A program made the position numbers and the translations under genes. From positions 4,154,001 through 4,218,000 of the forward strand of contig CATOCA020000001.1 in NCBI GenBank assembly GCA_951406725.2: DNA of 64,000 bases, written 5' to 3'. The notes beneath the pieces are model-generated. The model searched no databases, had not been told where the DNA came from, and worked only from the letters and a program-made list of their open reading frames with translations. Positions 18,330-64,000 of the stretch are shown piece by piece (position 1 is the first letter of the stretch; each line of letters starts with the position of its first letter). Source of the DNA: Octopus vulgaris. Lineage: Eukaryota.

Positions 18330-19668
18330 ATGGGCTGTTATTTCTAGCAAGATAACAGACCACCAATACGTTTTATAGACGCTTCTTCACTTGGTTTCTC
18401 CTTCGAGGAAGAAGTCTGACCAGATCCGGGAAAAAGTTTTATAAATGCTTCTTAAATTGTCTTTCAATTTCGTATGAAAAACAAAGCAAGTTTGAGGGTA
18501 GTGGGCTGTTATTTCTAGCAAGATGCCAGACCACCAATGCGTTTTATAGACGCTTCTTCACTTGGTTTCTCATTCGAGGAAGAAGTCTGACCAGATCCGG
18601 GAAAACGTTTTATAAATGCTTCTTAAATTGTCTTTCAATTTCGTATGAAAAACAAAGCAACATTGAGAGTAGTGGGCTGTTATTTCTAGCAATATACCAG
18701 ACCACCAATACGTTTTATAGACGCTTCTTCACTTGGTTTCTCATTCGAGGAAGAAGTCTGACCAGATCCGGGAAAAAGTTTTATAAATGCTTCTTAAATT
18801 GTCTTTCAATTTCGTATGAAAAACAAAGCAACTTTGAGTGTGGTGGGCTGTTATTTCTAGCAAGATAACAGACCACCAATACGTTTTATAGACGCTTCTT
18901 CACTTGGTTTCTCATTCGAGGAAGAAGTCTGACCAGATCCGGGAAAAAGTTTTATAAATGCTTCTTAAATTGTCTTTCAATTTCGTATGAAAAACAAAGC
19001 AACTTTGAGTGTGTGGGCTGTTATTTCTAGCAAGATCCAGACCACCAATCCGTTTTATAGACGCTTCTTCACTTGGTTTCTCATTCGAGGAAGAAGTCTG
19101 ACCAGATCCGGGAAAAAGTTTTATAAATGCTTCTTAAATTGTCTTTCAATTTCGTATGAAAAACAAAGCAACTTTGAGTGTTGTGGGCTGTTCTTTCTAG
19201 CAAGATACCAGACCACAAATACGTTTATAGACGCTTCTTGACTTGGTTTCTCCTTCGAGGAAGAAGTCTGACCAGATCCGGGCAAAAGTTTTATAAATGC
19301 TTCTTAAATTGTCTTTCAATTTCGTATGAAAAACAAAGCAACTTTGAGTGTTGTGGGCTGTTCTTTCTAGCAAGATACCAGACCACAAATACGTTTATAG
19401 ACGCTTCTTGACTTGGTTTCTCCTTCGAGGAAGAAGTCTGACCAGATCCGGGCAAAAGTTTTATAAATGCTTCTTAAATTGTCTTTCAATTTCGTATGAA
19501 AAACAAAGCAACTTTGAGTGTTGTGGGCTGTTCTTTCTAGCAAGATACCAGACCACAAATACGTTTATAGACGCTTCTTGACTTGGTTTCTCCTTCGAGG
19601 AAGAAGTCTGACCAGATCCGGGAAAAAGTTTTATAAATGCTTCTTAAATTGTCTTTCAATTTCGTATG
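18330..19668. repeat. 170-171 bp tandem repeat, ~8 copies
   Basis: GACCAC(C)AATACG recurs at ~18358, 18529, 18700, 18871, 19040, 19211, 19381 and 19551. Identical ORFs are 170 bp apart. Confidence 0.95.
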
Positions 19669-19699
19669 AGGGTAAGATATAAGGAGGTGGGAGAGATAG

Positions 19700-42900: not shown

Positions 42901-45455
42901 TAACAACTGATTCCGGCAGTTTGTTCCATGCTTGTGTGTGTATGGAGTGGAGGAAATCAGGTGTAGTGTTGGCGAATCTCAGAATGCATGAAAGTTTTGA
43001 AGGATGCAGTGCTCAGACTATTAACAACTGATGCCGGCAGTTTGTTCCATGCTTGTGTGTGTATGGAGGGGAGAAAATCATGTGTAGTGTTGGCGAATCT
43101 CAGAATGCATGAAAGTTTTGAAGGATGCAGTTCTCAGACAATTAACAACTGATGCCGGCAGTTTGTTCCATGCTTGTGTGTGTATGGAGGGGAGAAAATC
43201 AGGTGTAGTGTTGGCGAATCTCAGAATGCATGAAAGTTTTGAAGGATGCAGTGCTCAGACAATTAACAACTGATGCCGGCAGTTTCTTCCATGCTTGTGT
43301 GTGTATGGAGGGGAGAAAATCAGGTGTAGTGTTGGCGAATCTCAGAATGCATGAAAGTTTTGAAGGATGCAGGGTTCAGACAATTAACAACTGATGCCGG
43401 CAGTTTGTTCCATGCTTGTGTGTGTATGGAGGGGAGAAAATCAGGTGTAGTGTTGGCGAATCTCAGAATGCATGAAAGTTTTGAAGGATGCAGGGCTCAG
43501 ACAATTAACAACTGATGCCGGCAGTTTGTTCCATGCTTGTGTGTGTATGGAGGGGAGGAAATCAGGTGTAGTGTTGGCGAATCTCAGAAAGCATGGAAGT
43601 TTTGAAGGATGCAGTGCTCAGACAACTAACTACTGATGCCGGCAGTTTGTTCCATGCTTGTGTGTGTATGGAGGGAGAAAATCAGGTGTAGTGTTGGCGA
43701 ATCTCAGGAAGCATGGAAGTTTTTGAAGGATGCAGTGCTCAGACAATTAACAACTGATGCCGGCAGTTTGTTCCATGCTTGTGTGTGTATGGAGGGGAGA
43801 AAATCAGGTGTAGTGTTGGCGAATCTCAGGAAGCATGGAAATATTTGAAGGATGCATTGCTCAGACAATTAACAACTGATGCCGGCAGTTTGTTCCATGC
43901 TTGTGTGTGTATGGAGGGGAGGAAATCAGGTAGTGTTGGCGAATCTCATAAAGAATGGAAGTTTTGAATGATGCAGTGCTCCGACAACTAACAACTGATT
44001 CCGGCAGTTTGTTCCATGCTTGTGTGTGTATGGAGGGAGGAAATCAGGTGTAGTGTTGGCGAATCTCAGAATGCATGAAAGTTTTGAAGGATGCAGTGCT
44101 CAGACAATTAACAACTGATGCCGGCAGTTTGTTCCATGCTTGTGTGTGTATGGAGGGGAGAAAATCATGTGTAGTGTTGGCGAATCTCAGAAAGCATGGA
44201 AGTTTTGAAGGATGCAGTGCTCAGACAATTAACAACTGATGCCGGCAGTTTGTTCCATGCTTGTGTGTGTATGGAGGGGAGAAAATCAGGTGTAGTGTTG
44301 GCGAATCTCAGAATGCATGGAAGTTTTGAAGGATGCAGTGCTCAGACAATTAACAACTGATGCCGGCAGTTTGTTCCATGCTTGTGTGTGTATGGAGGGG
44401 AGAAAATCAGGTGTAGTGTTGGCGAATCTCAGAATGCATGGAAGTTTTGAAGGATGCAGTGCTCAGACAATTAACAACTGATGCCGGCAGTTTGTTCCAT
44501 GCTTGTGTGTGTATGGAGGGGAGAAAATCAGGTGTAGTGTTGGCGAATCTCAGAATGCATGAAAGTTTTGAAGGATGCAGTGCTCAGACAATTAACAACT
44601 GATGCCGGCAGTTTGTTCCATGCTTGTGTGTGTATGGAGGGGAGAAAATCAGGTGTAGTGTTGGCGAATCTCAGAATGCATGAAAGTTTTGAAGGATGCA
44701 GGGCTAAGACAATTAACAACTGATGCCGGCAGTTTGTTCCATGCTTGTGTGTGTATGGAGGGGAGAAAATCAGGTGTAGTGTTGGCGAATCTCAGGAAGC
44801 ATGGAAGTTTTGAAGGATGCAGTGCTCCGACAATTAACAACTGATGCCGGCAGTTTCTTCCATGCTTGTGTGTGTATGGAGGGGAGAAAATCAGGTGTAG
44901 TGTTGGCGAATCTCAGAATGCATGAAAGTTTTGAAGGATGCAGTGCTCAGACAATTAAGAACTGATGCCGGCAGTTTGTTCCATGCTTGTGTGTGTATGG
45001 AGGGGAGGAAATCAGGTGTAGTGTTGGCGAATCTCAGAAAGCATGGAAGTTTTGAAGGATGCAGTGCTCAGACAATTAACAACTGATGCCGGCAGTTTGT
45101 TCCATGCTTGTGTGTGTATGGAGGGGAGGAAATCAGGTGTAGTGTTGGCGAATCTCAGAAAGCATGGAAGTTTTGAAGGATGCAGTGCTCAGACAATTAA
45201 CTACTGATGCCGGCAGTTTGTTCCATGCTTGTGTGTGTATGGAGGGGAGGAAATCAGGTGTAGTGTTGGCGAATCTCAGAAAGCATGGAGGTTTTGAAGG
45301 ATGCAGTGCTCAGACAATTAACAACTGATGCCGGCAATTTTTTCCATGCTTGTGTGTGTATGGAGGGGAGGAAATCAGGTGTAGTGTTGGCGAATCTCAG
45401 GAAGCATGGAAGTTTTGAAGGATGCAGTGCTCCGACAACTGACAACTGATGCCGG
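21787..45455. repeat. 121-bp satellite array, ~195 copies, LINE-derived
   Basis: Unit TCAGGTGTAGTGTTGGCGAATCTCAGAAAGCATGGAAGTTTTGAAGGATGCAGTGCTCAGACAATTAACAACTGATGCCGGCAGTTTGTTCCATGCTTGTGTGTGTATGGAGGGGAGGAAA (121 nt, counted). Highly homogeneous and cut off by the gap. Confidence 0.98.
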
Positions 45456-45555
45456 NNNNNNNNNNNNNNNNNNNNNNNNNNNNNNNNNNNNNNNNNNNNN
45501 NNNNNNNNNNNNNNNNNNNNNNNNNNNNNNNNNNNNNNNNNNNNNNNNNNNNNNN
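45456..45555. other. Assembly gap (100 N)
   Basis: Run of n characters. Confidence 1.
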
Positions 45556-46085
45556 CCTATAAATTGACTTTACAATTTGAACACTTCAGAAGACAATGAA
45601 AAACAAGGATAGCTCATCAAACTTTATTGGAAATCATTGGCAAACAAATATCAGAAGCATTAGAACACTTCGACGTGGATTTAATTGTTACCAATTCTAC
45701 GTCGCTAAAAGCCACACTTCTTTTTTCTTGGTTGATTTTTATAACGGGATTTTTACTAAAAGAGTCTTCCCCATGAAGACATTCTTTTAAATTTTATTAA
45801 TCTACACATTTCCTTTGGAAATAACTGAGATATTTTGATTGAAAGTCACTTTTTTGCCTTACGCTGCCATTCTTTACCTCGAAAACTTTGAAATAAATAT
45901 TTTAAAGAATCAATTTCCAATTATTTCAGCTCCAAATGTAGCTTACATCTCGATCATCATTGCCAAAACAATGCAATCAATTAGGTTGAGAACTGAATTA
46001 CTAATTAAATCATGTAATAGGAGTGGAAGTGCTGCACTCTGTTGTTCACAGTCTCTAAGTGAAGTTCAGTAACAAGGACGGGGAG

Positions 46086-46320
46086 TCAAATGTTGGGGTG
46101 CCGGGTGGGATAATCTATAGTCACCTTGATACTTTGGTGGATGGAGTTGGCTACTTGCTGGATGCTCTCCATTAGGTTCCTCTCTGTTTCCACATTACCG
46201 TTACTAGAGCTGGTCTTAACTGTGACATTAATGCCATCTATATACCTACAGTAAAGTAGAAGAGTTGTGGATTGTTTTGCCAAGGATTGCTTAGGTTTTC
46301 TGATCCACCAGGTCATGAAG
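46086..46320 (-). mobile_element. Penelope-like RT fragment (downstream part)
   Basis: LLYCRYIDGINV..MESIQQVANSIHQSIKVTIDYPTRH, a degenerate YxDD region in PLE style. Confidence 0.6.
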
Positions 46321-46339
46321 AGGCCGGCAATATCTCCAG

Positions 46340-46806
46340 ATACACCGACACAAATGGCTGCACCTTGAACTTACATGTATAGTTTCAAGCATTTGTCTTA
46401 TGAAGGAAGGCCGAAGACGCACGACCTTTGTTCTCTCGAAAAACGACGACGCCGTGGTGATCTCATTCTTGCTCACTACATCATAAGCGGAAAGTGTATC
46501 CTCTCGAAAGAGCTGTTCTTCACTCCTGCTCCAGAGCGTCGGCTGCAGGGTCACTCCGAAAAGCTCTATCTACGACGATTTCATCTCAATCGAAGGAGAG
46601 GGGCTATCTCCGTCCGGGTTGCGGATCCGTGGAATAAGATGCCGGACGAGATAGTGAAGATGCCGACGACCGCTCGGTTCAAAGTCTCTCTTGACCAGAA
46701 ATAGCCTGAACTCTTTGTATGACCACCCTCCCTGTACATAACGCCCTATCCCCCTACATGGCCTTGCTTTTGCTTTTTGAGACAAAAAATTAAACTAAAC
46801 TAAACT
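46340..46806 (+). mobile_element. 5'-truncated CR1 LINE (ORF2 C-terminus, 3'UTR, (TAAAC)n tail)
   Basis: HLSYEGR..SLEKRRRRGDLI..GHSEKL..SVRVADPWNKMPDEIV..RFKVSLD; tail TAAACTAAACTAAACTA. Confidence 0.9.
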
Positions 46807-47180
46807 AGTGATACTTTAGTCTGTGGTTCTTCAAGGTGGTTCTTACGCTAGCTCCTACTGCCTGTGCAATCATTCCTTTCTCCTAATTGTTGTTCTCAGG
46901 GAGTTGGGTGGGTAGGGTCAAGCCACACCAGCGCTCAGTGGTGCATTTATTTACTGCTGAAGTGATGGTGGGTGGTCTAAGAATCTGTGATCTGGAGGGG
47001 TAGAATATATAGTCTAAGAACGAGACACGGATCACGCGTGTTGACCTCACTTCATATTTCACAGACAATCTCATTACGTTATACTCCAGCAAAATCGATG
47101 TCGATAGATGGGTAGAGGGAATCAAGTCCTTAGTGTCCACTACACAACATGTGAAGAACATGGAGTGACCAAAAATACTC
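46807..47180 (-). mobile_element. Penelope-like RT fragment (upstream part)
   Basis: DTKDLIPS (a DVxxLYPS-like motif), RPPTITS..ERW, MIAQAV..LKNH. Collinear with 46086-46320. Confidence 0.45.
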
Positions 47181-47254
47181 ATTTTATTGAGGATGTCCTC
47201 AGTGCTAACATAGAAGAAGAAGAAGAAGAAGAAGAAGAAGAAGAAGAAGAAGAA

Positions 47255-47285
<31 letters not shown>

Positions 47286-49398
47286 AAGAAGAAAAAGAAG
47301 AAGAAGAATAAGAAGAAGAAGAAGAAGAAGAAAAAGAGGAAGGAGAAGAAGAAGAAGAAGAAGAAGAAGAAGAAGAAAAAAAGAAGAAGAAGAAGAAGAA
47401 GAAGAAGAAGAAGAAGAAGAAGAAAAAGAAGAAGAAGAAGAAGAAGAAGAAGAAGAAGAAGAAGAAAAAAGAAGAAGAAGAAGAAGAAGAAGAAGAAGAA
47501 GAAGAAGAAGAAGAAGGAGAAGAAGAAGAAGAAGAAGAAGAAGAAAAAGAAGAAGAAGAAGAAGAAGAAGAAGAAGAAGAAGAAGAAGAAGAAGAAGAAG
47601 AAGAAGGAGAAGAAGAAGAAGGAGAAGAAGAAGAAATTAATCTAACGGCAATGCGGATAAATAACTGCCAGTCGTTGTCATGTCCAGGCACATTCAAAGA
47701 GATATATCATGAATAGAGTCCAGTAGTTGCTTCGTCGATATATTAAGGAAATGCGAAAAAATGTCATCGTTCAGAAGATATATGAAGCAGGAAGAAACGT
47801 TGCTTAGTTTCACATCGTATGTAATTGCGACGAAATATTGAATAATGTTCATTATGTAAAGAAAGAATTTATATGGAAATATAACGAATAAGGGAAGAAG
47901 AAGAAGAAGAAGAAGAAGAAGAAGAAGAAGAAGAAGAAGAAGAAGAAGAAGAAGAAGAAGAAGAAGAAGAAGAAGAAGAAGAAGAAGAAGAAGAAGAAGA
48001 AGAAGGAAACAAGAAGAGGAAGTAGAGGAGAAGAAAAAGAAGAAGAAGAAGGAGAAGAAGAAGAAGTAGAAGAAGAAGAAGAAAGAGAAGAAGAAGAAGA
48101 AGAAGAAGAAGAAGAAGGACAAGGAGGAGGAGCAGGAGGAATGGTGGAGGAAGAAGAAGAAGAAGAAGAAGAAGAAGAAGAGGAAGTAGAAGAGGAAGTA
48201 GAAGAAAAAGAAGGACGAGGAGGAGGAGCAGGAGGAATGGCGGAAGAAGGAGAAGAAGAAGAAGAAGAAGAAGAAGAAGAAGAAGAAGATGAAGAAGAAG
48301 ATGAGGAAGAAGAAGAAGAAGAAGAAAAAGAATGACGAGGAGGAGGAGCAGGAGGAATGGTGGAGGAAGAAGAAGAAGAAGAAGAAGAAGAAGAAGAAGA
48401 AGAAGAAGAAGAAGAAGAAGAAGAAGAAGAAGAAGAAGAAATGAAGAGGAAATGAAGAGGAGAAGAATATGAAGAGATAGATCGATAAATCTTGGGCGAG
48501 AAACATGGCTGAAAAATCAGGGAATATACGGAATCAGAAATCAACATATTCAAATGCACTCATACACATTCTTATATTCATAGTATCAACGACGGAATGC
48601 GGTATGCACACTCACATCACACATATTCCCACTCACCCTTGGGGAAATATGGTGAGAGAGATTATTTATTTCATATCGCTTCATTGTCACAAGAATATTA
48701 GAAAAAACACGCTTACAAGAAATATATCAGCAGTTTAATTGTATCAGGTGAAATATTCCAGCTTACAAGTACAGTAAGTATTTCAGGTTTACAGATAGAA
48801 TGTATGTGACTATATTATTCGAATATATATTTTCCGCTTCCACTTCAGTTGCTCTCTTACATAAATAACGTGAAGTGAATGACAAAATTCGAAGTTGAAT
48901 GATAATATCGAAACACGAAGAAGAATATTGAAATAAGAAATGGAGGAGGATGCAAAATATAAAATAAAGGAATAATATAGTCACATTTCGCACAGAACTA
49001 CACTTATATATGAACATACACATATACTTCAGCTTAAAATATTTGATGCAAACATGTAAACTCACAAACGTTACCATTTCTAATACAAATTCATATCAAA
49101 ATCATTGAAATTTGGGGAACAAAAATGAGTTATCGAGATGCGAATTGAAACAAAGCAACTACAATAAAGGAACATTATATTTTTCCTATTATTTCACTTT
49201 CTCTCTAAAATGCTCTCTCTTTCTTTCACATTGTCTCGCTCTCTCCTATTCTCTTTGTATCTTCCTAAATCTTGTTCATTCTACAAATTCGAATTGATTT
49301 TGTTTGGTGGAGTCTGAAATTTTATACATTTGTGAGCTTATATATCAGCATCAATTATTACTTTCTGAAAATAGTATCAAGAAATTAAACGAACTTAC

Positions 49399-49470
49399 AG
49401 TTCTTTTAAATTGGAAAGCCCCGTGAATGTACCTTCTTTGATGGTTGAAATGTTGTTCTCGTACAGATAT
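49399..49470 (-). CDS. LRR exon A1 (72 nt): YLYENNISTIKEGTFTGLSNLKEL
   Basis: Acceptor TTTTACTCTTTCTTTACTGCTATAG, donor GTAAGT, phase 2-2. Confidence 0.9.
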
Positions 49471-50607
49471 CTATAGCAGTAAAGAAAGAGTAAAATAGAT
49501 TATATGTAAAATATTTGTGATACGACATCAAACACTTTGACTTCAGAATGAAAGGAAGAAAAAGAAGAAAGATAACGAAGAAGAAGAAGAACTAGAAAGG
49601 AGAAGGAGAAGGAGAAGAAGAAGAAGAAGAAGAAGAAGAAGAAGAAGGAGAATAGACGAGGAGGTGGAGGAGGTGGAAGGGGAGGTGGAGGAGGTGGAAG
49701 GGGAGGTGGAGAGGCGGGGATGTTAGATGGACGACAAAGGAAGGGATGACTGAGCAGGGGGCCGCTGGGGGTAGCATCAGAAGGAGCAGGAAGAGCTGGA
49801 GACTGAGAATAAGAGGAAGAATTGGCAGAGAATGAAAAAGAGGGAGACCAGTGACGAAGCAGAAAGTACAGAGAAGAAAAAGAAGAAGAAGAAGAAGAAG
49901 AAGAAGAAGAAGAAGAAGAAGAAGAAGAAGCAGAAGAAGAAGCAGAAGAAGAAGAACCAGAAGAACAAGAAAATGAAGATTAAGACGAAGAAGAAGACAA
50001 AGAAAAGGAAGAAGTAGAAGAAGAGGAACATGAAGAAGATGAAGAAGGAAAGAAGAAAAAGACGAAGAAGATGAAGAAGAAGAAGAATAGAAGAGAACGA
50101 AGAAATTGAAGAAAAAGGAGGATGAGTAGGACGAAGAGGGGAGGTTGAAGAGGAGAATTGCAATAAGAAGAAGAAGAAGAAGAAAAAGGAAGAGAAGGAG
50201 GTGGAGGAGGAGAGGAATAGGAGAATTACAAGAAGAAGAACAAAACAACAACAACAATAGCAAAAAATTCATTTCGGTGGAAGTATGGATAAATAGCGAA
50301 ACGGCAGCACAGAATCAAGAGAACAATGTGTAAGAAAATAGTAGCTAAACCTTATATTAATAGTGCAGATACATACATACATATGAACATACACATATAT
50401 ATTTTCAGGAATAACATTTTTATGCAGACAATTATCAACTGACAGTCATTGACATGTTCAGACTCAATCAAATAAATATAACACGAATATGAGAACTGAA
50501 TATGATTTACAGTAATAGAGAGTGAGAAAACATGGAAATAAGGGGATATTAAATTTATAGACGGAGTATATTCCACATGTATAAACGACAACATTGAAAG
50601 AACTTAC

Positions 50608-50679
50608 AATTCCTCTAAGTTTTGAAGGCCTTGAAACATCTCTTTTTCAATCCTAGAAATTTTATTGTTGTCAAGAAAT
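50608..50679 (-). CDS. LRR exon B1 (72 nt): FLDNNKISRIEKEMFQGLQNLEEL
   Basis: Acceptor CCTGCTTCAG, donor GTAAGT, phase 2-2. Confidence 0.88.
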
Positions 50680-51602
50680 CTGAAGCAGGAAACAATATTG
50701 GTTAGATTGACATAGTGTGAATTGCGATAACATATTCAATATTGTTCTTTATGAAAAGGGACAAAATTATAGGAAAATAATACGAAATGAAGAAGAAAAG
50801 GAGGAGACGGAGAAGAAGAAGAAGAAGAAAGAAGAAGAAGAAGGAGAAAAAGAAGAAGGAGAAGATGATGAAGGAGGAGGAGGAGGAGAGGAGGAGGAGG
50901 AGGAGAATAACAAAAAGGAGAAGATAGGAAGAAGAAGAAGGAGGAGGAGTAGGAGTAGAAGAAGTAGAAAGTGGAAGAAGAAGAAGAAGAAAAGGAATAG
51001 AAGAAGAAGAAGAAGAAGAAGAAGAAAAAGAAGGAGAAGAAAAAGGAGAAGCATGAGGATGGGGGAGGGAGAATTACAAGAAGAAGAAGAAGAAGAAGAA
51101 GAAGAAGAAGAAGAAGAAGAAGAAGGAAAAGGAGGTGGGGGAGTGGGAGGGGGAGAATTACAAGAAGAAGAAGAAGAAGGAGAAGGAGGAAGTGGATGCA
51201 CAAGTAAAAGGAAGAGAATGAAGGGGGAGGAGAAGAAGTAGAAGAGAGAGATGAAGAAGAAAACGAATAAGAAGGAGGAAGACGAGGAGGAAAAAGTAGA
51301 AGAAGAAGATAAAAAGAAGCAGGATCGGTGAGGGGGAGGGGTGGAAGAGAATTACAAGATGAAGAAGGAGGAGGAGCGGGAGGGAGAGGAGGAGGAAGAG
51401 AATTACAAGAAGAAAATGAAGAAGGAGCAGAGGGAAAAAAGTAGAAGAAGAAGGAGGGAGGAGGAGAAGAAGAACAAAAGAAGAAGAAGAAGAAGAAGAA
51501 GAAGAGAAGAAAAAGGAGGATCGGGAGGAGAGGAGGAGGAAGAAGAAGAAGAAGGTGAAGAAAAAAGAAGGAGGAGGAGGAATAGCAGGAGAAGAAGAAG
51601 AA

Positions 51603-51634
<32 letters not shown>

Positions 51635-52700
51635 AGAAGTAGAAGAAAAAGAAGAAGGAGAAGAAGAAGAAGAAGAAGAAGTAGAAGAAGAAGGAGATAA
51701 AAAATAAAGACACATTGAAAATCATGGTGTTCAAGAAGACGAAACTGAAATTGTTCTTAAAATATCAGGAAATAATTCAAGGATAGAGCGAAAAATTTTG
51801 GCGAGGAGACATGGCTGAAAAATCAGGGAATATACGGAATCAGAAATCAACATATTCGAATGCACTCATTCGCATTCTTATATTCATAGTATCAACGACG
51901 GAATGCGCTATGCACACTCACATCACACATATTCCCACTCACCCTTGGGGAAATATGGTGAGAGAGATTATTTATTTCATATCGCTTCATTGTCACAAGA
52001 ATATTAGAAAAAACACGCTTACAAGAAATATATCAGCAGTTTAATTGTATCAGGCCAAATATTCCAGCTTACAAGTACAGTAAGTATTTCAGGTTTACAA
52101 ATAGAATGTATGTGACTATATTATTCGAATATATATTTTCCGCTTCCACTTCAGTTGCTCTATTACATAAATAACGTGAAGTGAATGACAAAATTCGAAG
52201 TTGAATGATATCGAAACACGAAGGAGAATATTGAAATAAGAAATGGAGGAGGATGTAAAATATAAAATAAAGGAATAATATAGTCACATTTCACACAGAA
52301 CTACACTTATATATGAACATACACACTTACTTCAGCTAAAAATATTTGATACACACATGTAAACTCACAAACGTTCCCATTTCTAATACAAATTCATATC
52401 AAAATCATTGAAATTTGGGGAACAAAAATGAGTTATTGAGATGCGAATTGAAACAAAGCAACTACAATAAAGGAACATTATATTTTTCCTATTATTTCAC
52501 TTTCTCTCTCAAATGCTCTCTCTTTCTTTCACATTGTCTCGCTCTCTCCTATTCTCTTTGTATCTTCCTAAATCTTGTTCATTCTACAATTTCGAATTGA
52601 TTTTGTTTGGTGGAGTCTGAAATTTTATACATTTGTGAGCTTATATATCAGCATCAATTATTACTTTCGGAAATAGTCTCAAGAAAATGAACGAACTTAA

Positions 52701-52772
52701 AATTCTTTTAAATTCGAAAGCCTCGTGAATGCACCTTCTTTGATGGTTGAAATGTTGTTCTCGTACAGAGCT
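52701..52772 (-). pseudogene. LRR exon A2 (72 nt), donor mutated: ALYENNISTIKEGAFTRLSNLKE
   Basis: Intact acceptor ..GCTATAG and open frame, but the donor reads TTAAGT instead of GTAAGT. Confidence 0.75.
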
Positions 52773-53326
52773 CTATAGCAGTAAAGAAAGAGTAAAATAG
52801 ATTATATGGAAAATATTTGTGATACGACTTCAAACACTGTGACTTCAGAATGAAAGGAAGAAAAAGTAGAAAGATAACAAAGAAGAAGAAGGAGGAGGAG
52901 AAGTAGGAGAAGAAGTAGAAGAAGAAGAAGAAGAAGAAGAAGAAGAAGAAGAAGAAGAAGAAGAAGAAGAAGAAGAAGAAGAAGAAGAGCGAAAGTTACA
53001 ACATCAACAACCACAATAACAAAAATTTATTTCGGTGGAAGTGTGGATAAATAGCCACACAGCACCACAGAATCAAGAGAACAATGTGTAACAAAATAGT
53101 AGCTAAAACTTGTATTAATAGTGCCGATACATACATACATATGAACATACACATATATATTTTCAGGAATAACATTTTTATGCAGACAATTATCAACTGA
53201 CAGTCATTGATATGTTCAAACTCAATCAAATAAATATAACACGAATATGAGAACTGAATATGATTTACTGTATTAGAGAGTGAGAAAACATGGAAATAAG
53301 GGGATATTAAATTTAAAGACATAGTA

Positions 53327-54585
53327 CGAGGAGCGTTCAATAAGTAATGCCCCTGACCCACTTGCTCTTGTTTGATCTAGCTGAAATTTTGCATGTACAC
53401 TTACTTATACCTGTATAGATGAGATGGTGAATTTCAGTTCTGAACTAATTGTGGTTTCTGATTTACAGGTGTTTGAACCGAGTCAAGTGTGAAATGGAGC
53501 CTGTTGAGTGTCGAGCAGTGATCTGGTTTTTGTATTTGAAAGGACGCACACCACGGGAGACTTTTGATGAAATGAAAGTAACTTATGGTGATGATGTCCC
53601 ATCATATGACGCTGGCATTGTGAATTCAAACATAGTCGGAACTATGTTGAAACAGCTCCCAGATCTGGTCGCTCCCTTCTGCCGTTGATGAGACGCCTGT
53701 CCGTCAAGTTGAGGCTGCCATTTTGGAAGGTCAACGCATAACTATTCGCCAAATAGCCCATAAGGTCAAGATTAGTACCGGGTCTGTGGAAAATATCATT
53801 CATGACCATTTGCATATGCAAAAGGTGTCTGCCAGATGGATTTCCAGGTTGCTCACACCTTTCCAGAAGCAAGAACGCGTTGAGTGCTCGAGGATGAATT
53901 TGGAGATGTGCCAAGAAGATGAGTCAAAATTTTTCAAAAGACTGATCACACAGGATAAAACCTGGGTCCATCACTATGATCCATAGACCAAAGCCCAGTC
54001 AATGAAGCGAAAGCACCGTGACTCACCTCCTCCAAAGAAGGCAAGGGTGCAGCCCTCCGCTGACAAGGTTATGCTCACAGTCTTCTGGGACCAGGACGGA
54101 GTAGTGATGACAGATTTCCTGGCAAAGTGTACCACAATTACAGCAGCCTATTATGCTTCAATTTTGAGGAAATTAAGAGAGCTATCAAAATCAAGAGGCG
54201 GAGCAATATCAGCAAATGCATCCTCCTCCTGCAGGACAACGCTCCTGTCCACAACTCGCGTGCCGCCAGATCAGAAGCACAGGCGTGCAGCTATGAACTC
54301 CTCCCCTTGCACCCTCTGATTTTCACCTGTTCCCAGCCATGAAGTTGATTTTGAAAGGAAAGCGTTTCCCAGATGATGCAGCCTTGATTTCTGAAGTCAC
54401 GTCGTGGTTGGAGGACCAAGCTGGGGTCTTCTACAAAAACGGTCTCCGGAGCTGTATCAAACGATGGGAGAAATGCATAACTCTGGGTAGTTCCTATGTA
54501 GGAAACGACTAATAACTGTGCCAAGTGTCGTTGCTCTACTGCTATGGGAAGTGGGTCAGGGGCATTACTTATTGGACGCCCCTCG
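53327..54585 (+). mobile_element. Full-length but inactivated mariner (DD34D, irritans-like) in an LRR intron
   Basis: TIRs CGAGGAGCGTTCAATAAGTAATGCCCCTGACCCACTT / AAGTGGGTCAGGGGCATTACTTATTGGACGCCCCTCG with a TA duplication. Transposase fragments RAVIWFLYLKG, ARWISRLLT, ITQDKTWVHHYDP, LLLQDNAPVH; frameshifts and a stop. Confidence 0.95.
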
Positions 54586-54626
54586 TATATTCCTCATGTA
54601 TAAACGACAACATTGAAAGAACTTAC

Positions 54627-54698
54627 AACATCTCTAAGTTTTGAAGGCCTTGAAACATCTCTTTTTCAATCCTTGAAATTTTATTGTTGCCAAGACCT
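54627..54698 (-). CDS. LRR exon B2 (72 nt): GLGNNKISRIEKEMFQGLQNLEML
   Basis: Acceptor CCTGCTTCAG, donor GTAAGT, phase 2-2. Confidence 0.88.
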
Positions 54699-55534
54699 CT
54701 GAAGCAGGAAACAATATTGGTTAGATTAACATAGTGTGAATTGCGATAACATATTGAATATTGTTCTTTATGAAAAGGGACAAAATTATAGGAAAATAAT
54801 ACAAGAGGGACAGGAAAGAAATTGAGGAGAAGATGAAGAAGAAGAAGGAGAGGAGAGGAAGGGGAAAAGAAGATGACAAGAAGAAAGAGGAGGGGGAGAA
54901 GATGTAGAAGGAGGAGGTGGAGGAGGGGAGGAGAAGAAGTAGGATGAGGACGTTGGAGTACAAGGAGATGTAGGAGGGAGAGGAAAATGGGAGGAGGAGG
55001 AGGAGCAGTGGGTAGAGTAGAAGAAGAAGTTGTAGAAGATTAAAAAGAGGATGAGGAGAGTGAGGATACGAAGAAGAAGGGGAAGAAAAAGAAGGAGAAG
55101 AAAACGGAGAAGAAGAAGTGAAGAAAGAAGAAAAGTGGAAAAAGAAGAAGTAGAAGCAGGAAAAAGAAGAAGGAGATGAAGAAGGAGGAGGAGGAGGGGA
55201 AGGAGAAAGAGAATAACAAAAAAAGAAGATAATAATAATAAGGTGGATGAGGTGAAGTAGGAGAAGAAGAAGACGTAAAAGAAGATGAAAAAGAATGAGG
55301 ATGTGGATGGGGAGAGGGGGAGGAAGAATTGCAAGAAGAAGAGAAGGAAAAGAAGTAGAAAAAAAAGGAGAAGGAGAATAGGTAGAAGTTGAAGAAAAAG
55401 AAAGAGAAGAAAAAGAAGACGAAAAAGAAGATGAAGGAAGCGGAGGTAATATAAGGAGGAGGATGAATGGGAACAAGAAGAAAAAGAAGAAGAAGGATGT
55501 GGAAGAGAAGTAGATGAAAAGTAGAAAGTTGAAG

Positions 55535-55565
<31 letters not shown>

Positions 55566-57089
55566 TGAGGAAGAAAAAGAAGGAGGAAGACGAGGAGGAG
55601 TAGAAGAGAAAGAAGAAGAAGGAGGAGGAGGAGGAGGAGGAGATGAAGAAGAAGATGTAGAAGAATAATAATAAGAAGAAGAGGTAGAAGAAGAAGGAGG
55701 AGAAAAAGAAGGAGAAGAAGAAAAAGGAACAGGATGGGAAGGGGGGAGGCATGAGAATTACAAGAAGAAAAAGGAGCAGGAGGGGAAGAAGAGGAGGAGG
55801 AAGAGAATTACAAGAAGAAAATGAAGAAGAAAAAGGAAGAGAAAAAACTTAGAAGAAAAGTAGGAGGAGGAGGAGAAGAAGAAGAATAGAAGAAAAGAAG
55901 AAGAAGAAGAAGATAAAGAAGAAGAAAAAGAAGAAGTGAAGAAAATGAAGGAGGAGAGGCGGAGGAAGAAGAAGGAAGAAGAAGAGGAGGAGGAAGTAGA
56001 AGGAGACGAGGAAGTAGAAAAAGTAGAAGAAGAAGAAGAAGAAGAAGAAGAAGAAGAAGAAGAAGAAGAAGAAGAAGAAGAAGAAGAAGAAGAAGAAGAA
56101 GAAAATAACACATTGAAAATCATGGTATTGAAGACGAATCTGGAAATGTTCTCAAGATATCAGGAAATAATTCAAGGATAGATCGATAAATTTTGGGCGA
56201 GAAAAATCAGGGAGTATACGGAATCAGAAATCAACATATTCAAATGCACTCATACGCATTCTTATATTCATAGTGTCAACGACGGAATGCGCTATGCACA
56301 CTCACATCACACATATTCCCACTCACCCGTCTGGAAATATGGTGAGAGAAATTATTTATTTCATATCGCTTCATTGTCACAAGAATATTAGAAAACACAA
56401 GCTTACAAGAAATATATCAGCAGTTTAATTGTATCAGGCGAAATATTGCAGCTTACAAGTACAGTAAGTATTTCAGGTTTACAGATAGAATATATGTGAC
56501 TATATAATTCGAATATATATTTTCCGCTTCCACTTCAGTTGCTCTATTACATAAATAACGTGAAGTGAATGACAAAATTCGAAGTTGAATGATAATATCG
56601 AAACACGAAGGAGAATATTGAAATAAGAAATGGAGGAGGATGTAAAATATAAAATAAAGGAATAATATAGTCACATTTCACACAGAACTACACTTAGATA
56701 TGAACATACACATATACTTCAGCTAAAAATATTTGATGCAAACATGTAAACTCACAAACGTTACCATTTCTAATACAAATTCATATCAAAATCATTGAAA
56801 TTTGGGGAACCGAAATGAGTTATTGAGATGCGAATTGAAACAAAGCAACTACAATAAAGGAACAATATATTTTTCCTATTATTTCACTTTCTCTCTCAAT
56901 TTCTCCCTCTTTCTCTCACTATTGTTTCGCTCTCTTACTCCATCTTTGTATCTTCCAAACACCTGTTCGGTCCCAAAATTTGAATTGATCTTGTTTAGTA
57001 CAGTTTGACACATTATATGGTTATGAATGTATATATCAGCATCAAATATTACTTTCTGAAAATAGTATCAAGAAATTGAACAAACTTAC

Positions 57090-57161
57090 AATGTCTTTAA
57101 ATTCGAAAGCCCCGTGAATGCTCCTTCTTTGATGGTTGCAATGTTGTTGCCCCCAAGATCT
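57090..57161 (-). CDS. LRR exon A3 (72 nt): DLGGNNIATIKEGAFTGLSNLKTL
   Basis: Acceptor CTTTCTTTACGGCTATAG, donor GTAAGT, phase 2-2. Confidence 0.9.
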
Positions 57162-59751
57162 CTATAGCCGTAAAGAAAGAGTAAAATAGATTATATGGAA
57201 AATATTTGTGAGAAAACACCAAACACTGTGACTTCAGAATGAAAGGAAGAAAAAGAAGAAAGATAACGAAGAAGAAGAAGAAGAAAAACAAGAAGAAGGA
57301 GAAGAAGGTGGAGGAGGAGGCGAAGAAGAAGAAAAAGAAGAAAAAGAAGAAGAAGAAGGAGGAGGAGGTGGAGGAGGAAAATAACAAAAAGAAGATGAGA
57401 AGAAAAAAGAGGAAGCGGAAGAGGAGAAGTAGGTGAAGAAGTAGAAAGAAGAAGAAAAAGAAAACGAAGGAGGATGAGGAGGTGGAGGGGAAAAAGAAGA
57501 ATTGCAAGAAGAAGAAGAAGAAGGAGGAGGAGGAGGAGAAGAAGAATAAGAAGAAGTAGAAGAAGGAGAAGAAGAAAAAGGAGAAGAAAAGAAGAAGAAG
57601 ACGAAAGAAGAGGAAAAAGGAGAAGAATGAAGGGGAAGAATAAGTAGAAGAAGAAGAAAAAGAAGAAGATGAAGGAGAAGGAGGAGAAGGAGGAGGAAAA
57701 TAATAAAAAGAAGATAAGAAGAAGAAAAAAGGAGGAGGGGAAGTAGATAAAGAAATAGAAAGTAGTAGAAGTAGAAAAAGAAAAAAAGGAAGTAGAAGAA
57801 AGAGATGAAGAAGAAAAAAGAAAACGGAAAACGAGGAGGAGAAGTAGAAGAAGATGGGGGAGGAAAAGAAGAAGAAGAAGAAGAATTAAAAGAAGAAGCA
57901 GAAGAAGAAGAAGAATAGAAAGAAGTAGAAAAAGGAGAGGAAAAAAGGAATTGAAGAAGAAGAAGGAAGAGGAAAAAGGAGGAGGAGGAGGATGTAGTGG
58001 AAGGAGTAGTAGAAGAAAAACAAAAAGGGGAAGAAGAAGAAGAAGGAGAAGTAGAAGAAGAAAAAAATGAATAAGAAGGAATACGAGGAGGAGAGGTAGA
58101 AGACGAAGGAAGAGAATAAGAATAGGAAGAAGAAGAAGAAGAAGAAAGAGAAGGAGCAGCAGGAGAGGACGAAGAATAAGAAGATAATGAAGAAGGAGAA
58201 GAAGGGTGATGAGGAGGTGGAGTGGAAGAAGAAAAATTGCAAGAAGAAGAAGAAGGAGAAGAAGAAGAAGAAGCAGAAGAAGAAGACGTAGAAGAAGAAG
58301 AGGAAGAATAGGAAGAAGAAGAAGAAGAAGAAGAAGAAAAAGGAGCAGGAGGAGAGAGGGAGAAGGAGAATTACAAGAAGAAAAAGTTGGAGGAGGGGCG
58401 GAGAGGAGGTGGAAGAGAATTAAAAGAAGAAAATGAAGAAGAAGAAGAAAAAAATAGAAGAGGAAGAAGGACGAGGAGGACGAGGAGGAGGGGAGAAGAA
58501 GTAGAAGAAGAAGAAGAAGAAGAAGAAGAAGAAGAAGAAGAAGAAGAAGAAGAAGAAGAAGAAGAAGAAGAAGAAGAAGAAGAAGAAGAAGAAGAAGAAG
58601 AAGAAGGAGGAGAAGGAGCAGCAGGAGGAGAGGAAGAGGAGGAAAAAGAAGAAGAAGAAGAAGAAGAAGAAGAAGAAGAAGAAGAAGAAGAAGAAGAAGA
58701 AGAAGAAGAAGAAGAAGAAGAAGAAGAAGAAGAAGAAGAAGAAGAAGAAGAAGAAGAAGAAGAAGAAGGAGAAGACGAAGAGGACACATTGAAAATGATG
58801 GTGTTCAAGACGAGACTGAAATTGTTCTCAAAACATCAGGAAATAATTCAAGGATAGAGCGAAAAATTTGGGGCGAGAAGACATGGCTGAAAAATCAGGG
58901 AATATACGGAATCAGAAATCAACATATTCAAATGCACTCATACACATTCTTATATTCATAGTGTCAACGACGGAATGCGGTATGCACACTCACATCACAC
59001 ATATTCCCACTCACCCGTCTGGAAATATGGTGAGAGAGATTATTTCATATCGTTTCATTGTCACAAGAATATTAGAAAACAAGCGCTCACAAGAAATATA
59101 TCAGCAGTTTAATTGTGTCAGGCCAAATATTCCAGCTTACAAGTACAGTAAGTATTTCAGGTTTACAAATAGAATGTATGTGACTACATCATTCTAATAT
59201 ATATTTTCCGCTTCTACTTCAGTTGCTCTATTACATAAATAACGTGAAGTGAATGACAAAATTCGAAGTTGAATGATAATATCGAAACACGAAGGAGAAT
59301 ATTGAAATAAGAAATGGAGGAGGATGCAAAATATAAAATAAAAGAATAATATAGTCACATTTCACACAGAACTACACTTATATATGAACATACACATATA
59401 CTTCAGCTAAAAATATTTGATGCAAACATGTAAACTCACAAACGTTACCATTTCTAATACAAATTCATATCAAAATCATTGAAATTTGGGGAACAAAAAT
59501 GAGTTATCGAGATGCGAATTGAAACAAAGCAACTACAATAAAGGAACATTATATTTTTCCTATTATTTCACTTTCTCTCTAAAATTCTCTCTCTTTCTTT
59601 CACATTGTCTCGCTCTCTCCTATTCTCTTTGTATCTTCCTAAATTTTGTTCATTCTACAAATTTGAATTGATTTTGTTCGGTCCAGTCTGAAATATTATA
59701 CATTTGTGAGCATCAATTATTACTTTCTATCAAGAAATTAAACGAACTTAC

Positions 59752-59823
59752 AAGCCCTTTAAATTCGAAAGCCCCGTTAATGTACCTTCATTGATGGTTG
59801 AAATGCTGTTGCCCCAAAGAGCT
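59752..59823 (-). CDS. LRR exon A4 (72 nt): ALWGNSISTINEGTLTGLSNLKGL
   Basis: Acceptor CTTTCTTTACTACCACAG, donor GTAAGT, phase 2-2. Confidence 0.88.
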
Positions 59824-62577
59824 CTGTGGTAGTAAAGAAAGAGTAAAATAGATTATATTGAAAATATTTGTGATACGACATCAAACGCTGTGACTTCAGA
59901 ATGAAAGGAAGAAAAGGCAGAAAGATAACGAAGAAGAAAAGGAAGAAGAAGAAGGAGGAGGAGGTGAAGAAGAAGAAGAAAAAGAAGAAGAAGAAGAATT
60001 AGTAGAAGAAGAAAGGAGAAGAAGAAGAAGAAGAAAAAGAAGAAGAAGAAAAAGAAGAGGAAGAAGGAATAGGAGGAAAAAGGAGGAGGAGGATGGTAAA
60101 AGGGAAGAAGTAGTAGAGGAAAAAGTAAAAGAAGAAGAAGGAGGAGGAGGATGACAAGTAGATGAAGAAGAAGAAAGAAGAAGAAGAAGAAGAAGAAGAA
60201 GAAGAAAAAGAAGAAGAAGAAGAAAATGAAGGAGGATGAGGAGGGGGAGAGGAAGAAGTAGAATTGCAAGAAGAAGAAGGATGAGAAGAACAAGAAGAAG
60301 ACGTAGAAGTAGAAGCAGGAAAAAGGAAAAGAAGATGAAGAAGAAGGAGGAGGAGGAGGAGGAGAAGAAGAAGTAGAAAGAAGGAGAGGAAGAAAAAGAA
60401 GAAGAAGAAGAAGAAGAAGAAGAAGGAAGAGGAGGAAAAAGGAGGAGGAGAATGATGGGGAAGAATAAGTAGGACAAGCTGAAAAAGAAGAAGAAGATGA
60501 AGGAGGAGGAGGATGAGAATAACAAAAAGAAGAATATAAGAAGAAGAAAGAGGAGTAGGAGGAGAAGTAGATGATGAAGTAGAAAGTAGTAGAAGAAGAA
60601 GAAGAAGAATAAGAAGAAGAAGAAAAAAGAAGTAGAAAAATGAGAAGAAGAAAAGAAAAAGAAGGAGGAGGAGGAGAAGAAGAAGAAGAATTAGAAGAAG
60701 ACGCAGAAGAAGAAGAAAAAGAAGCGGGAGAGGAGGGGGAGGAGGAGAAATACAAGAAAAAAAGGAGGAGGAGGGGCGGAGAGGATTGGGAAGAAAGAAA
60801 GAAGAGGAATAAAGAAGTAGAAGAAGGAGGAGGAAGCAATGAAGGGGAAAAGTAGGAGTAGAAGAAAAAGAAGAAGAATAAGAAGAAGGAGGAGGAGGAG
60901 GAGGAGGAGGAGTAGTTGAAAAAGTTGAAAGTAGAAGAGGATGTAGGAGAAGAAGAAGAAGAAATAAGTAGAAGCGAGAGAAGAAGAAAAAGAATAAGGA
61001 GGACGGGAAGAAGAAGAAGAAGAAGAAGAAGAAGAAGAAGAAGAAGAAGAAGAAGAAGAAGAAGAAGAAGAAGAAGAAGAAGAAGAAGAAGAAGAAGAAG
61101 AAGAAGAAGAAGACGGAGAAGAAGAAGAAGAAGAAGAAGAAGAAGAAGAAGAAGAACGAGCAGGAGAGGAGGGGAGGAGGAGAATTACAAGAAGAAAAAT
61201 GAGGAGGAGGAGCGGAGTGGAGGGGGAGAGAATTTAAAGAAGAAAATGAAGAATGAGAAGAAGAAAGAAATTAGAAGAGGAAGAAGGAGTAGGAGGAGTA
61301 GAAGAAGAAAAAAAAAGAGGAGAAGAAGAAGAAGGAAAAGAAGAAAAAGAAGAGAAGAATAAGAAGGAGGAGAAGGAGCAGCAGGAGGAGAGGAAGAGGA
61401 AGAAGAAGAAGAAGAAGAAGAAGAAGAAGAAGAAGAAGAAGAAGAAGAAGAAGAAGAAGAAGAAGAAGAAGAAGAAGAAGAAGAAGAAGAAGAAGAAGAA
61501 GAAGAAGAAGAAGAAGAAGAAGAAGAAGAAGAAGAAGAAGAAGAAGAAGAAGAAGAAGAAGAAGAAGAAGATACATTGAAAATTATGGCGTTCAAGATGA
61601 AACTGAAAATGTTCTTAAAATATCAGGAAATAATTCAGGGATAGAGCGAAAAATTTTGGGCGAGAAGACATGGCTGAAAAATCAGGGAATATACGGAATC
61701 AGAAATCAACATATTCAAATGCAATCATTCGCATTCTTATATTCATAGTGTCAACGACGGAATGCGGTATGCACACTCAAATCACACATATTCCCACTCA
61801 CCGTTGTGGAAACATGGTGAGAGAGATTATTTATTTAATATCGCTTCATTGTCACAAGAATATTAGAAAACACACGCTTACAAGAAATATATCAGCAGTT
61901 TAATTGTATCAGGCCAAATATTCCAGCTTACAAGTACAGTAAGTATTTCAGGTTTTCAGATAGAATGTATGTGACTATATTATTCGAATATATATTTTCC
62001 GCTTCCACTTCAGTTGCTCTATTACATAAATAACGTGAAGTGAATGACAAAATTGGAAGTTGAATGATAATATTGAAATAAGAAATGGAGGAATTTGCAA
62101 AATATAAAATAAAGGAATAATATATTCACATTTCACACAGAACTACACTTATATATGAACATACACATATACTTCAGCTAAAAATATTTGATACACACAT
62201 GTAAACTCACAAACGTTCCCATTTCTAATACAAATTCATATCAAAATCATTGAAATTTGGGGAACCAAAATGAGTTATTGAGATGCGAATTGAAACAACG
62301 CAACTACAATAAAGGAATATTATATTTTTCCTATTATTTCATTTTCTCTCTAAAATGCTCTCTCTTTCTTTCACATTCTCCCGCTCTCACCTATTCTCTT
62401 TGTATCTTCCTAAATCTTGTTCATTCTACAAGTTTGAATTGATTTTGTTCGGTGCAGGAGAATATTGGAATAAGAAATGGAGTAGGATGCAAAATATAAA
62501 TTATACATTTGTGAGCTTATATATCAGCATCAATTATTACTTTCGGAAAATAGTATCAAGAAATTAAACGAACTTAC

Positions 62578-62649
62578 AAGTAGTTTAAATTCGAAAGCCC
62601 TGTGAATGTACCTTCTTTGATGGTTGCAATGTTGTTGGAACCAAGATAT
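62578..62649 (-). CDS. LRR exon A5 (72 nt): YLGSNNIATIKEGTFTGLSNLNYL
   Basis: Acceptor TTTTACTCTTTCTTTACTGCTATAG, donor GTAAGT, phase 2-2. Confidence 0.9.
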
Positions 62650-63169
62650 CTATAGCAGTAAAGAAAGAGTAAAATAGATTAGATGGAACAAATTTGTGAT
62701 GCGACATCAAACACTGTGACTTCAGAATGAAAGGAAGAAAAAGAAGAAAGATAACGAAGAAGAAGAAGGAGGAGGAGGATGTGGACAAGAAGAAGAAGAA
62801 GAAGAAGAAGAAGTAGAAGAAGAACGGAGAAGAGAAGAAGAAGAAGAAGAGGAAGAAGAATTGACGAGGAGGTGGAGGAGGCGGAGGAGGTGGAGGAGGC
62901 GGAGGAGGTGGAGAGGTGGGGAGGTTAGGAGGAGGACAAAGGAAAGGATGACTGAGCAGGGGGCCGTTGGGGGTAGCAGCAGAAGGAGCAAGAAGAGCAG
63001 GAGAATGAAAATAAGAGGAGGAATTGGCAGAGAATGGAAAAGAGGGAGACAAGTGACGGAGCAGAAAGTATAGAGAAGAAAAAGAAGAAAAAAAGAAGGC
63101 AAAGAAGAAGACAAAGAAGAAGTAGAACACGGAGAAAAGTAACAAGAAGAAGAAGATGAAGTGAAGAAG

Positions 63170-63201
<32 letters not shown>

Positions 63202-63817
63202 GAAGAAGAAGAAGACAAAGAAAAGGAAGAAGTAGAAGAAGAGGAACATGAAGAAGATGAAGAAGGAAAGAAGAAAAAGACGAAGAAGATGAAGAAGAAG
63301 AAAAATAGAAGAGAAAGAAGAAATTGAAGAAAAAGGAGGATGAGTAGGACAAAGAGGGTAGGTTGAGGAGGAGAATTGCTATAAGAAGAAGAAGAAAAAG
63401 GAGGAGAAGGAGGTGAAGGAGGAGGGGGAATAGGAGAATTACAAGAAGAACAAAACAACAACAACAATAGCAAAAAATTTATTTCGGTGGAAGTGTGAAT
63501 AAATAACCACACGGTAGCACAGAATCAAGAGAACAATGTGTAAGAAAACAGTAGCTAAAACTTATATTAATAGTGCAGATACATACATACATATGAACAT
63601 ACACATATATATTTTCAGGAATAACATTTTTATGCAGACAATTATCAACTGACAGTCATTGACATGTTCACACTCAATCAAATAAATATAACACGAATAT
63701 GAGAACTGAATATGATTTACAGTAATAGAGAGTGAGAAAACATGGAAATAAGGGGATATTAAATTTATAGACGGAGTATATTCCACATGTATAAACGACA
63801 ACATTGAAAGAACTTAC

Positions 63818-63889
63818 AATTCCTCTAAGTTTTGAAGGCCTTGAAACATCTCTTTTTCAATCCTAGAAATTTTATTGTTGCGAAGACCT
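63818..63889 (-). CDS. LRR exon B3 (72 nt): GLRNNKISRIEKEMFQGLQNLEEL
   Basis: Acceptor CCTGCTTCAG, donor GTAAGT, phase 2-2; fits the xLxxNxIxxIxxxxFxGLxxLxxL consensus. Confidence 0.88.
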
Positions 63890-64000
63890 CTGAAGCAGGA
63901 AACAATATTGGTTAGATTGACATAATGTGAATTGCGAAAACATATTCAATATTGTTCTTTATTTAAAGGGACAAAATTATAGGAAAATAATACGAGAAGA

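Follow-up and report, generated by a model that had tools for sequence, protein, structure and literature searches.

It is usual to treat adhesion G protein-coupled receptors (GPCRs) as conserved. The stretch of Octopus vulgaris DNA analyzed here (64,000 nucleotides, positions 4,154,001 to 4,218,000 of contig CATOCA020000001.1; hereafter the window) carries part of a gene which, by its sequence relatives, belongs to an octopus LRR-adhesion-GPCR family and is built as an array of short leucine-rich repeat (LRR) exons, referred to here as cassettes. Receptors of a similar kind were described by Ritschard et al. 2019 (PMC6408891) as group 3 of the octopus class-B adhesion GPCRs, which have GPS and 7TM regions, lie in tandem clusters and bear LRRs in 5 of 22 sequences. 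The available sections of that report give positive selection at the level of branches with no individual selected site, and name the axial nerve cord, suckers, skin and gills as places of expression, and they favor a neural role. The likeness to the family studied here, in the GPS/7TM and in the LRRs, was established by comparing descriptions, and neither exon cassettes nor conversion are mentioned in those sections.

Other described systems share single aspects of this locus and are compared here on the available parts of each source. The ROCO genes of the brown alga Ectocarpus (Zambounis et al., PMC3341825) likewise have 72-nt exons that each encode a single LRR and are shuffled from locus to locus, some exons that are inactivated, and positive selection on the concave face; however, they encode intracellular Roc-COR GTPases, whereas the octopus proteins start with a signal peptide and those of the paralogs add the membrane part of an adhesion GPCR. 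No Pfam match to a Roc-COR domain was found in five proteins of the octopus family, and we infer an independent origin of the two systems. In variable plant NLRs (PMC8226289), one example has its high-entropy positions at 3, 5, 7 and 8, the same as in the octopus cassettes, although they were measured there among alleles of NB-ARC proteins and here among paralogous cassettes of extracellular receptors. The lamprey and hagfish VLRs (PMC13428168) have in common with the octopus gene the 24-residue LRR cassettes, a variable concave face and conversion-like exchange, but their germline gene is incomplete and is assembled somatically with AID/APOBEC deaminases. The octopus gene is not a VLR, because its germline gene is a spliced exon array; from the comparison with VLRs in the original prediction the pattern of variable positions is retained, and somatic assembly is not. 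Crab VLR2 (PMC10045472) is likewise an invertebrate LRR protein with isoforms differing in repeat number, but it is a single gene with ten splice forms and tested bacterial binding, for which those parts describe no large cassette family or GPCR part. The literature search, with subscription papers mostly outside its scope, returned no description of the octopus cassettes or of selected sites, and the supplements of PMC6408891 may list LRR members. The evolutionary mechanism itself is already known.

The gene has 13 LRR exons, eight of them in the window and five more, together with the exon for the signal peptide and LRRNT, past its end. The eight are 72-nt phase-2 exons on the minus strand, each encoding one 24-residue LRR split within a leucine codon (Table 1). 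Positions are numbered in the LxxLxLxxN register, in which x denotes the variable positions, and A, B and C denote exon types. AG/GT ends were found in 12 of the 13 exons, all of them in gene order, and the intact exons have no stop codons. For the comparison between loci, 21 fetched segments gave 173 exons (87 A, 21 B, 14 terminal C and 51 more diverged). The core set, from 14 loci, includes 85 A (79 distinct), 21 B (19 distinct) and 11 C exons, after the exclusion of four A and three C from diverged loci and the addition of two borderline A; six A and two B with non-homologous flanks were dropped from the tree-based steps. The variable exons number from two to at least 16 per locus, and the order of A and B differs between loci.

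Variation in these exons is concentrated at four codons. B1 and B3 differ at 4 nt, all within two codons (F>G, D>R), with 2 of 267 positions differing in the adjacent 3' intron (50341-50607 and 63551-63817), and A1 and A5 have 14 differences, 9 of them in codons x7, x8, x2 and x3. These counts had been made in the original prediction and are exact on recount, and the starts and ends it gave for the A exons match the sequence. The 3' intron is the more favorable flank of the B1/B3 pair, as 6 of 111 bases differ in the 5' intron. Within the window gene, x3, x5, x7 and x8 (12 of 72 bases) hold 181 of 329 pairwise differences among the eight A exons and 40 of 56 among the five B exons. In the core set, A exons show 12-13 different residues at each of these four positions (2.6-3.1 bits) and B exons show 5-9 (2.0-2.8 bits), with Tyr and Trp being common, and the 85 germline A cassettes have 71 distinct four-residue signatures. 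L6, N9, I11, F19, L22 and L1 are nearly fixed, and x2, x10, x12 and x18 toggle among few states (x2 mostly K/N or E/Q). Among the 11 terminal C exons, the variable positions are x7, x8, x2 and x3. Nucleotide diversity at the first and second positions of the four codons is 0.50-0.74 in A and 0.34-0.73 in B, with an intron mean of 0.03-0.11. The x5 codon has T as its third base in all 21 B exons and in 82 of the 85 A exons (103 of 106 overall), next to first and second bases near saturation; in B, the third base is C in 20 of 21 exons at x7 and in all 21 at x8.

Positions 3, 5, 7 and 8 of LRRs line the concave sheet. Solved LRR proteins with 24-residue repeats, ALS (E 2e-101) and LGR4 among them, match a member of the family in register, and from this register and PMC8226289 the four positions are predicted to be on the concave binding face. 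The earlier proposal of variation in the ligand-facing x positions is narrowed to x3, x5, x7 and x8, with the face assigned by register and x2 set apart as mostly a two-state toggle.

The dN/dS ratio is above 1 at x3, x5, x7 and x8 and is robust to recombination nulls. The pairwise proportion of nonsynonymous differences (pN) in the four codons is 0.61 in A and 0.54 in B, with an exon proportion of synonymous differences (pS) of 0.21 and 0.064 and a pN of 0.06 and 0.05 in the other codons. Relative to whole-exon pS, this corresponds to ratios of 2.9 (A) and 8.5 (B) for the four codons and 0.30 and 0.79 for the others. Counting each codon state once and assigning ties to synonymous steps gave 2.65 (A, p=2e-5) and 6.9 (B, p=5e-6). 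The four sites were chosen after inspection of the data; with six positions set beforehand (x2, x3, x5, x7, x8, x10), the ratios were 2.1 (A) and 6.1 (B). The M1a/M2a site models, run with our own code on exon trees, gave twice the log-likelihood difference (2dL) of 66.5 with omega 3.4 for the 79 distinct A, and 32.1 with omega 10.3 for the 19 distinct B, with posteriors of at least 0.99 solely at x3, x5, x7 and x8. An omega of 21.7 obtained for B from the intron tree was discarded, since the introns recombine too (minimum number of recombination events, Rm, 13 of 23 sites) and offer no neutral genealogy. The diversifying selection suggested from the window alone is thus borne out by the pairwise counts, the once-per-state count and the site model, and dN/dS stays above 1 at the variant codons in the larger set of 85 A and 21 B.

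Because recombination inflates site tests, neutral x codons were simulated under gene conversion. None of the 100 simulations for A and none of the 480 for B attained the observed pN, and the maximum 2dL was 22.2 for A (10 runs) and 11.0 for B (40 runs), the observed value never being reached (0/50). These simulations bear on relaxed constraint, under which exposed positions would drift neutrally and conversion would inflate the apparent rate. It gains something from the general tolerance of exposed LRR positions, from the several broken cassettes and from the one null run with a 2dL of 22; however, first- and second-position diversity is about three times (A) and about eight times (B) the exon synonymous level, there is next to no variation at the remaining non-consensus positions of the convex side, and the neutral simulations never attain the observed values. 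Relaxed constraint is largely refuted and seems very improbable.

The exons are also mosaics of short blocks. L6-x7-x8, x17-x18 and x2-x3 are linked internally (z 8-18), with little linkage between blocks, and these blocks of 6-9 nt recur on unrelated backgrounds; one L6-x7-x8 block was found nine times, and across these copies it is combined with four versions of x5 and five of x2-x3. Such recurrence suggests that selection and conversion likely act together, so that the short-tract conversion first offered as an alternative to selection becomes its complement. All four gametes are present in 79-100% of A exon site pairs, and the introns recombine as well. Cassettes are hardly closer within a gene than between genes (intron distance 0.047 vs 0.051), and one pair has 0 of 460 intron differences yet eight different codons. 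Diversity at fourfold exon sites is 0.196, vs 0.051 in introns (3.8-fold), and the introns are therefore a homogenized, younger baseline. For this reason the contrast between exon and intron overstates the effect; the intron counts of the original prediction were correct, but as a baseline the intron is poor, exon synonymous sites being about four times as diverse. A rare acceptor variant is present in four cassettes, all four with the same first three codons and diverging further 3', which indicates that conversion tracts cross the splice site. The linkage of this variant to the 5' exon block is what is expected of DNA-level tracts.

The same data raise the question of a targeted mechanism, whether conversion (focused on the exon or templated by cDNA) or a mutator acting locally, that would rewrite the exon and spare the introns. 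Exon differences hardly drop among pairs with near-identical flanks, giving an uncoupling ratio of 0.84 in the exon vs 0.16-0.51 in nine intron windows of equal length, and diversity exceeds 0.4 at 3 of 9 fourfold exon sites vs 7 of 461 intron sites (p=5e-4). Toy models of selection with untargeted conversion also under-reproduce this uncoupling. However, matching for allele frequency (minor allele at least 0.25) closes most of the gap, with 0.82-0.90 in introns vs 0.92-1.02 in the exon, and the contrast is not seen in B. The conserved third codon positions argue against a regional mutator, and a nearly fixed third base of x5 beside nearly saturated first and second bases is inexplicable by a regional mutator or by a conversion tract. 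A cDNA donor is disfavored, as the 5' exon block is accompanied by acceptor variants that lie in the intron. Single steps connect all A codon states (0 extra steps at the four sites; three extra in total in B), so the whole-codon swaps are ends of single-step networks already in the pool and need no special mutator. A multi-nucleotide mutator was rejected on these networks, although such connectivity is not rare by chance in large sets (P 0.07-0.30, A). A reading of the fixed third bases like that of diversity-generating retroelements was dropped, since the adenine-rich codons next to them, N9 and x10, are nearly fixed and the changes are not adenine-specific. Overall, a targeted mechanism is considered unlikely.

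Independent sequence data were available as contigs of sequencing runs, whose RNA labels are guesses, none being on record as RNA. Run X14 has a contig in which A3, without differences (0/72), directly abuts another A exon. In run X16, a loose end that was read by eye joins the end of the exon upstream of B3 to the first codons of B3, both features being unique in the set. Contigs of three runs guessed to be RNA pile on B1 and run into other LRR exons, with the F and D codons not individually confirmed. Alternative letters at the variable codons are found in contigs of three DNA or unlabelled runs. Furthermore, 19 distinct A and 12 distinct B repeats, varying at the same sites, were obtained from ten O. 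sinensis models; their x7-x8 pair is shared with the O. vulgaris genome in 13 of 19 A and 5 of 12 B, and all four residues in 4 of 19 A and 1 of 12 B. An artefact of assembly or polishing, with errors or in-silico chimeras among collapsed repeats, would agree with the long GAA tracts, the gaps beside several arrays, the cassettes with 1-2-nt indels or truncation and an inverted duplicate block on C5. Against it stand the letter-for-letter match of A3, the gene-unique junction carrying the first codons of B3, the variation of the three DNA or unlabelled runs at the same codons, the same pattern in O. sinensis proteins and the absence of stops in intact exons. As A3 is exact and B3 is spliced in independent runs, an assembly error, the outcome that could have undone the prediction, is highly unlikely.

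The contigs also bear on somatic, VLR-like assembly of cassettes in individual cells. When single-contig LRR junctions were read by eye, two of eight matched adjacent exons of the assembly and six matched no adjacent pair in the fetched loci, which, with variable positions as in VLR-type receptors, is what such assembly would give. However, the cassettes follow in order from LRRNT to LRRCT and have splice sites of their own, spliced neighbors are seen, the germline repertoire of signatures is already large, and the unmatched junctions, being from other animals, may stem from alleles or from paralogs outside the fetched loci. Somatic assembly therefore has hardly any probability left, and the unmatched junctions are a hint that arrays differ between animals.

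Here it is proposed, with good though not full confidence, that stepwise mutation and diversifying selection act at the four surface codons, and that germline conversion and unequal crossover reshuffle blocks and homogenize the introns. The cassette structure, the family, the site pattern, the dN/dS above 1, the block mosaicism and the spliced contigs are direct observations. From them, stepwise point mutation would generate new residues, which would be retained where rare surfaces are favored; DNA-level exchange would copy short blocks among more than 100 near-identical cassettes and homogenize the introns, and repeat number and order would shift between genes. Several points weigh against this explanation. 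The cassettes are paralogs of one assembly and not alleles, and around 13 with 1-2-nt indels, truncation or a lost acceptor were excluded. Some neutral runs, 6 of the 100 for A and 37 of the 480 for B, did reach the pN/pS ratio on its own, owing to the noise in pS over 72 nt. In A, pS is 0.30 inside the four codons vs 0.19, and the once-per-state count is 5.1 nonsynonymous vs 3.7 synonymous changes per site, so some local mutation excess may be present there; since synonymous diversity in these codons is also raised in A, B gives the cleaner signal of selection. Toy models of selection with untargeted conversion give the site diversity and the direction of the uncoupling (best about 0.7 vs 0.6) but not its full extent, and fall short of the 3.8-fold synonymous excess. 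The concave-face assignment is taken from the register with solved 24-residue LRRs and from PMC8226289. Also, the membrane part of the window copy is missing from the assembly, in which the gene stops at the gap 45456-45555.

Table 1. Features of the cassette gene and its surroundings (window positions, except for the first exon)
Feature	Position	Strand	Remarks
Intron leading in paralogs to the terminal LRR exon and LRRCT	45556..49398	-	Ends at assembly gap 45456-45555
LRR exon A1 (YLYEN...LKE)	49399..49470	-	AG/GT, open frame, used in NCBI model P0001; final LRR exon ahead of gap
LRR exon B1 (FLDNN...LEE)	50608..50679	-	x5 codon 50676-50678, x7 codon 50670-50672
LRR exon A2 (ALYEN...LKE)	52701..52772	-	TT replaces GT donor; omitted from P0001
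Degenerate mariner-type DNA transposon	53325..54587	+	In intron immediately 3' of B2; 39-nt inverted repeats; Transposase_1 E=5e-18; frame broken
LRR exon B2 (GLGNN...LEM)	54627..54698	-	Splice ends and open frame
LRR exon A3 (DLGGN...LKT)	57090..57161	-	Unique among 85 A exons
LRR exon A4 (ALWGN...LKG)	59752..59823	-	Rare acceptor variant, common to three other ALW exons
LRR exon A5 (YLGSN...LNY)	62578..62649	-	Splice ends and open frame
LRR exon B3 (GLRNN...LEE)	63818..63889	-	Junction to upstream exon in run X16
Signal-peptide/LRRNT first exon	G000:C31:4232111-4232347		Beyond window end

The assignment to the octopus LRR-adhesion-GPCR family comes from the first exon and from the paralogs. 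A protein labelled Octopus vulgaris is identical to the first exon, whose 22 matches are all from O. vulgaris or O. sinensis, and many are named adhesion GPCR G6-like; 15 of 40 scored matches are at least 95% identical. In the paralogs the array is followed by the terminal LRR exon, by LRRCT and by a Cys-rich domain, and some of them also have GPS and 7tm_2. In the paralog P0013, where GPS (E 1e-10) and 7tm_2 (E 7e-34) were seen, the exons lie behind an LRR array at C31:2.88-2.95 Mb. The nearest matches of the 7TM region are Octopus proteins (48-96%), followed by gastropod and bivalve LRR-adhesion GPCRs (41-45%); the LRR-bearing relatives, whose membrane region is 41-45% identical, are from limpet, oyster and whelk. 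The Cys-rich domain behind LRRCT (P0013 residues 224-315) ends in a CCxxxxCN motif and is duplicated in P0021; it is presumably Ly6/uPAR-like, although Pfam gave no match and the ESM Atlas, searched together with the following region, no usable one.

Positions 45556-47218 are 97% identical to the corresponding intron of two paralogs, and the 145 kb left of the gap contain no LRRCT, GPS, 7TM or other downstream exon of the window gene. Two candidates for the missing 3' half were rejected: the orphan at C14:1-60000, which is another gene, since it comes with a last intron of its own and its four A exons are different ones, and the piece at C30:18.87-18.88 Mb, which belongs to a more diverged subfamily. 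The very start of a large scaffold, G000:C14:1-80000, carries a headless family member, with no GPS/7TM exon found in the 80 kb; it may have been misplaced in the assembly, or be a form that lacks the membrane part. At G000:C5:141880859-141891849, four LRR exons are repeated in inverted orientation beside the main array with identical exons, in a segment that includes an N gap.

The NCBI model P0001 fuses ankyrin exons at C31:4.138-4.144 Mb to the LRR gene; this ankyrin tail is a join, via intron sequence, to a separate gene across the gap. P0001 also splices the LRRNT exon straight to A5, bypassing six intact LRR exons, and gene models of the family have isoform numbers up to X13. This layout and these numbers may reflect exon skipping. 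A2, to judge from its donor and its absence from P0001, is probably skipped in splicing with the frame kept; between it and the intact exon at C31:5046714 there is a difference of 1 nt. Elsewhere in the window, a tandem array of about 23.7 kb (21786-45455; 121-bp unit, about 96% identical) abuts the assembly gap, and a second array, at 18283-19669, has units of about 171 bp, one of which serves as an exon in P0001. An Rfam scan of 44000-64000 gave no match.

With respect to function, we infer from the pattern, at about even odds, that the target is a ligand met at body surfaces which is foreign or non-self and changes fast, and not a partner in neural wiring. A wider reading, speculative and rather improbable, is a germline system of combinatorial recognition on adhesion GPCRs, in which binding-face micro-blocks of more than 100 cassettes are swapped so fast that arrays differ between animals and which, perhaps with exon skipping or cell-specific choice, would supply a variable repertoire for pathogens or self/non-self at skin, gills and suckers. 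In the evolution of its ectodomain, this octopus adhesion-GPCR family resembles a plant resistance gene or a brown-algal ROCO, with four residues per repeat that are under strong diversifying selection and recombined among cassettes. For the question of how cephalopods recognize diverse microbes or non-self, concrete residues and genes are thus named, and the cassettes, with their fixed scaffold, amount to a library of LRR surfaces provided by nature. Such a pattern would suit a receptor family that recognizes fast-changing targets.

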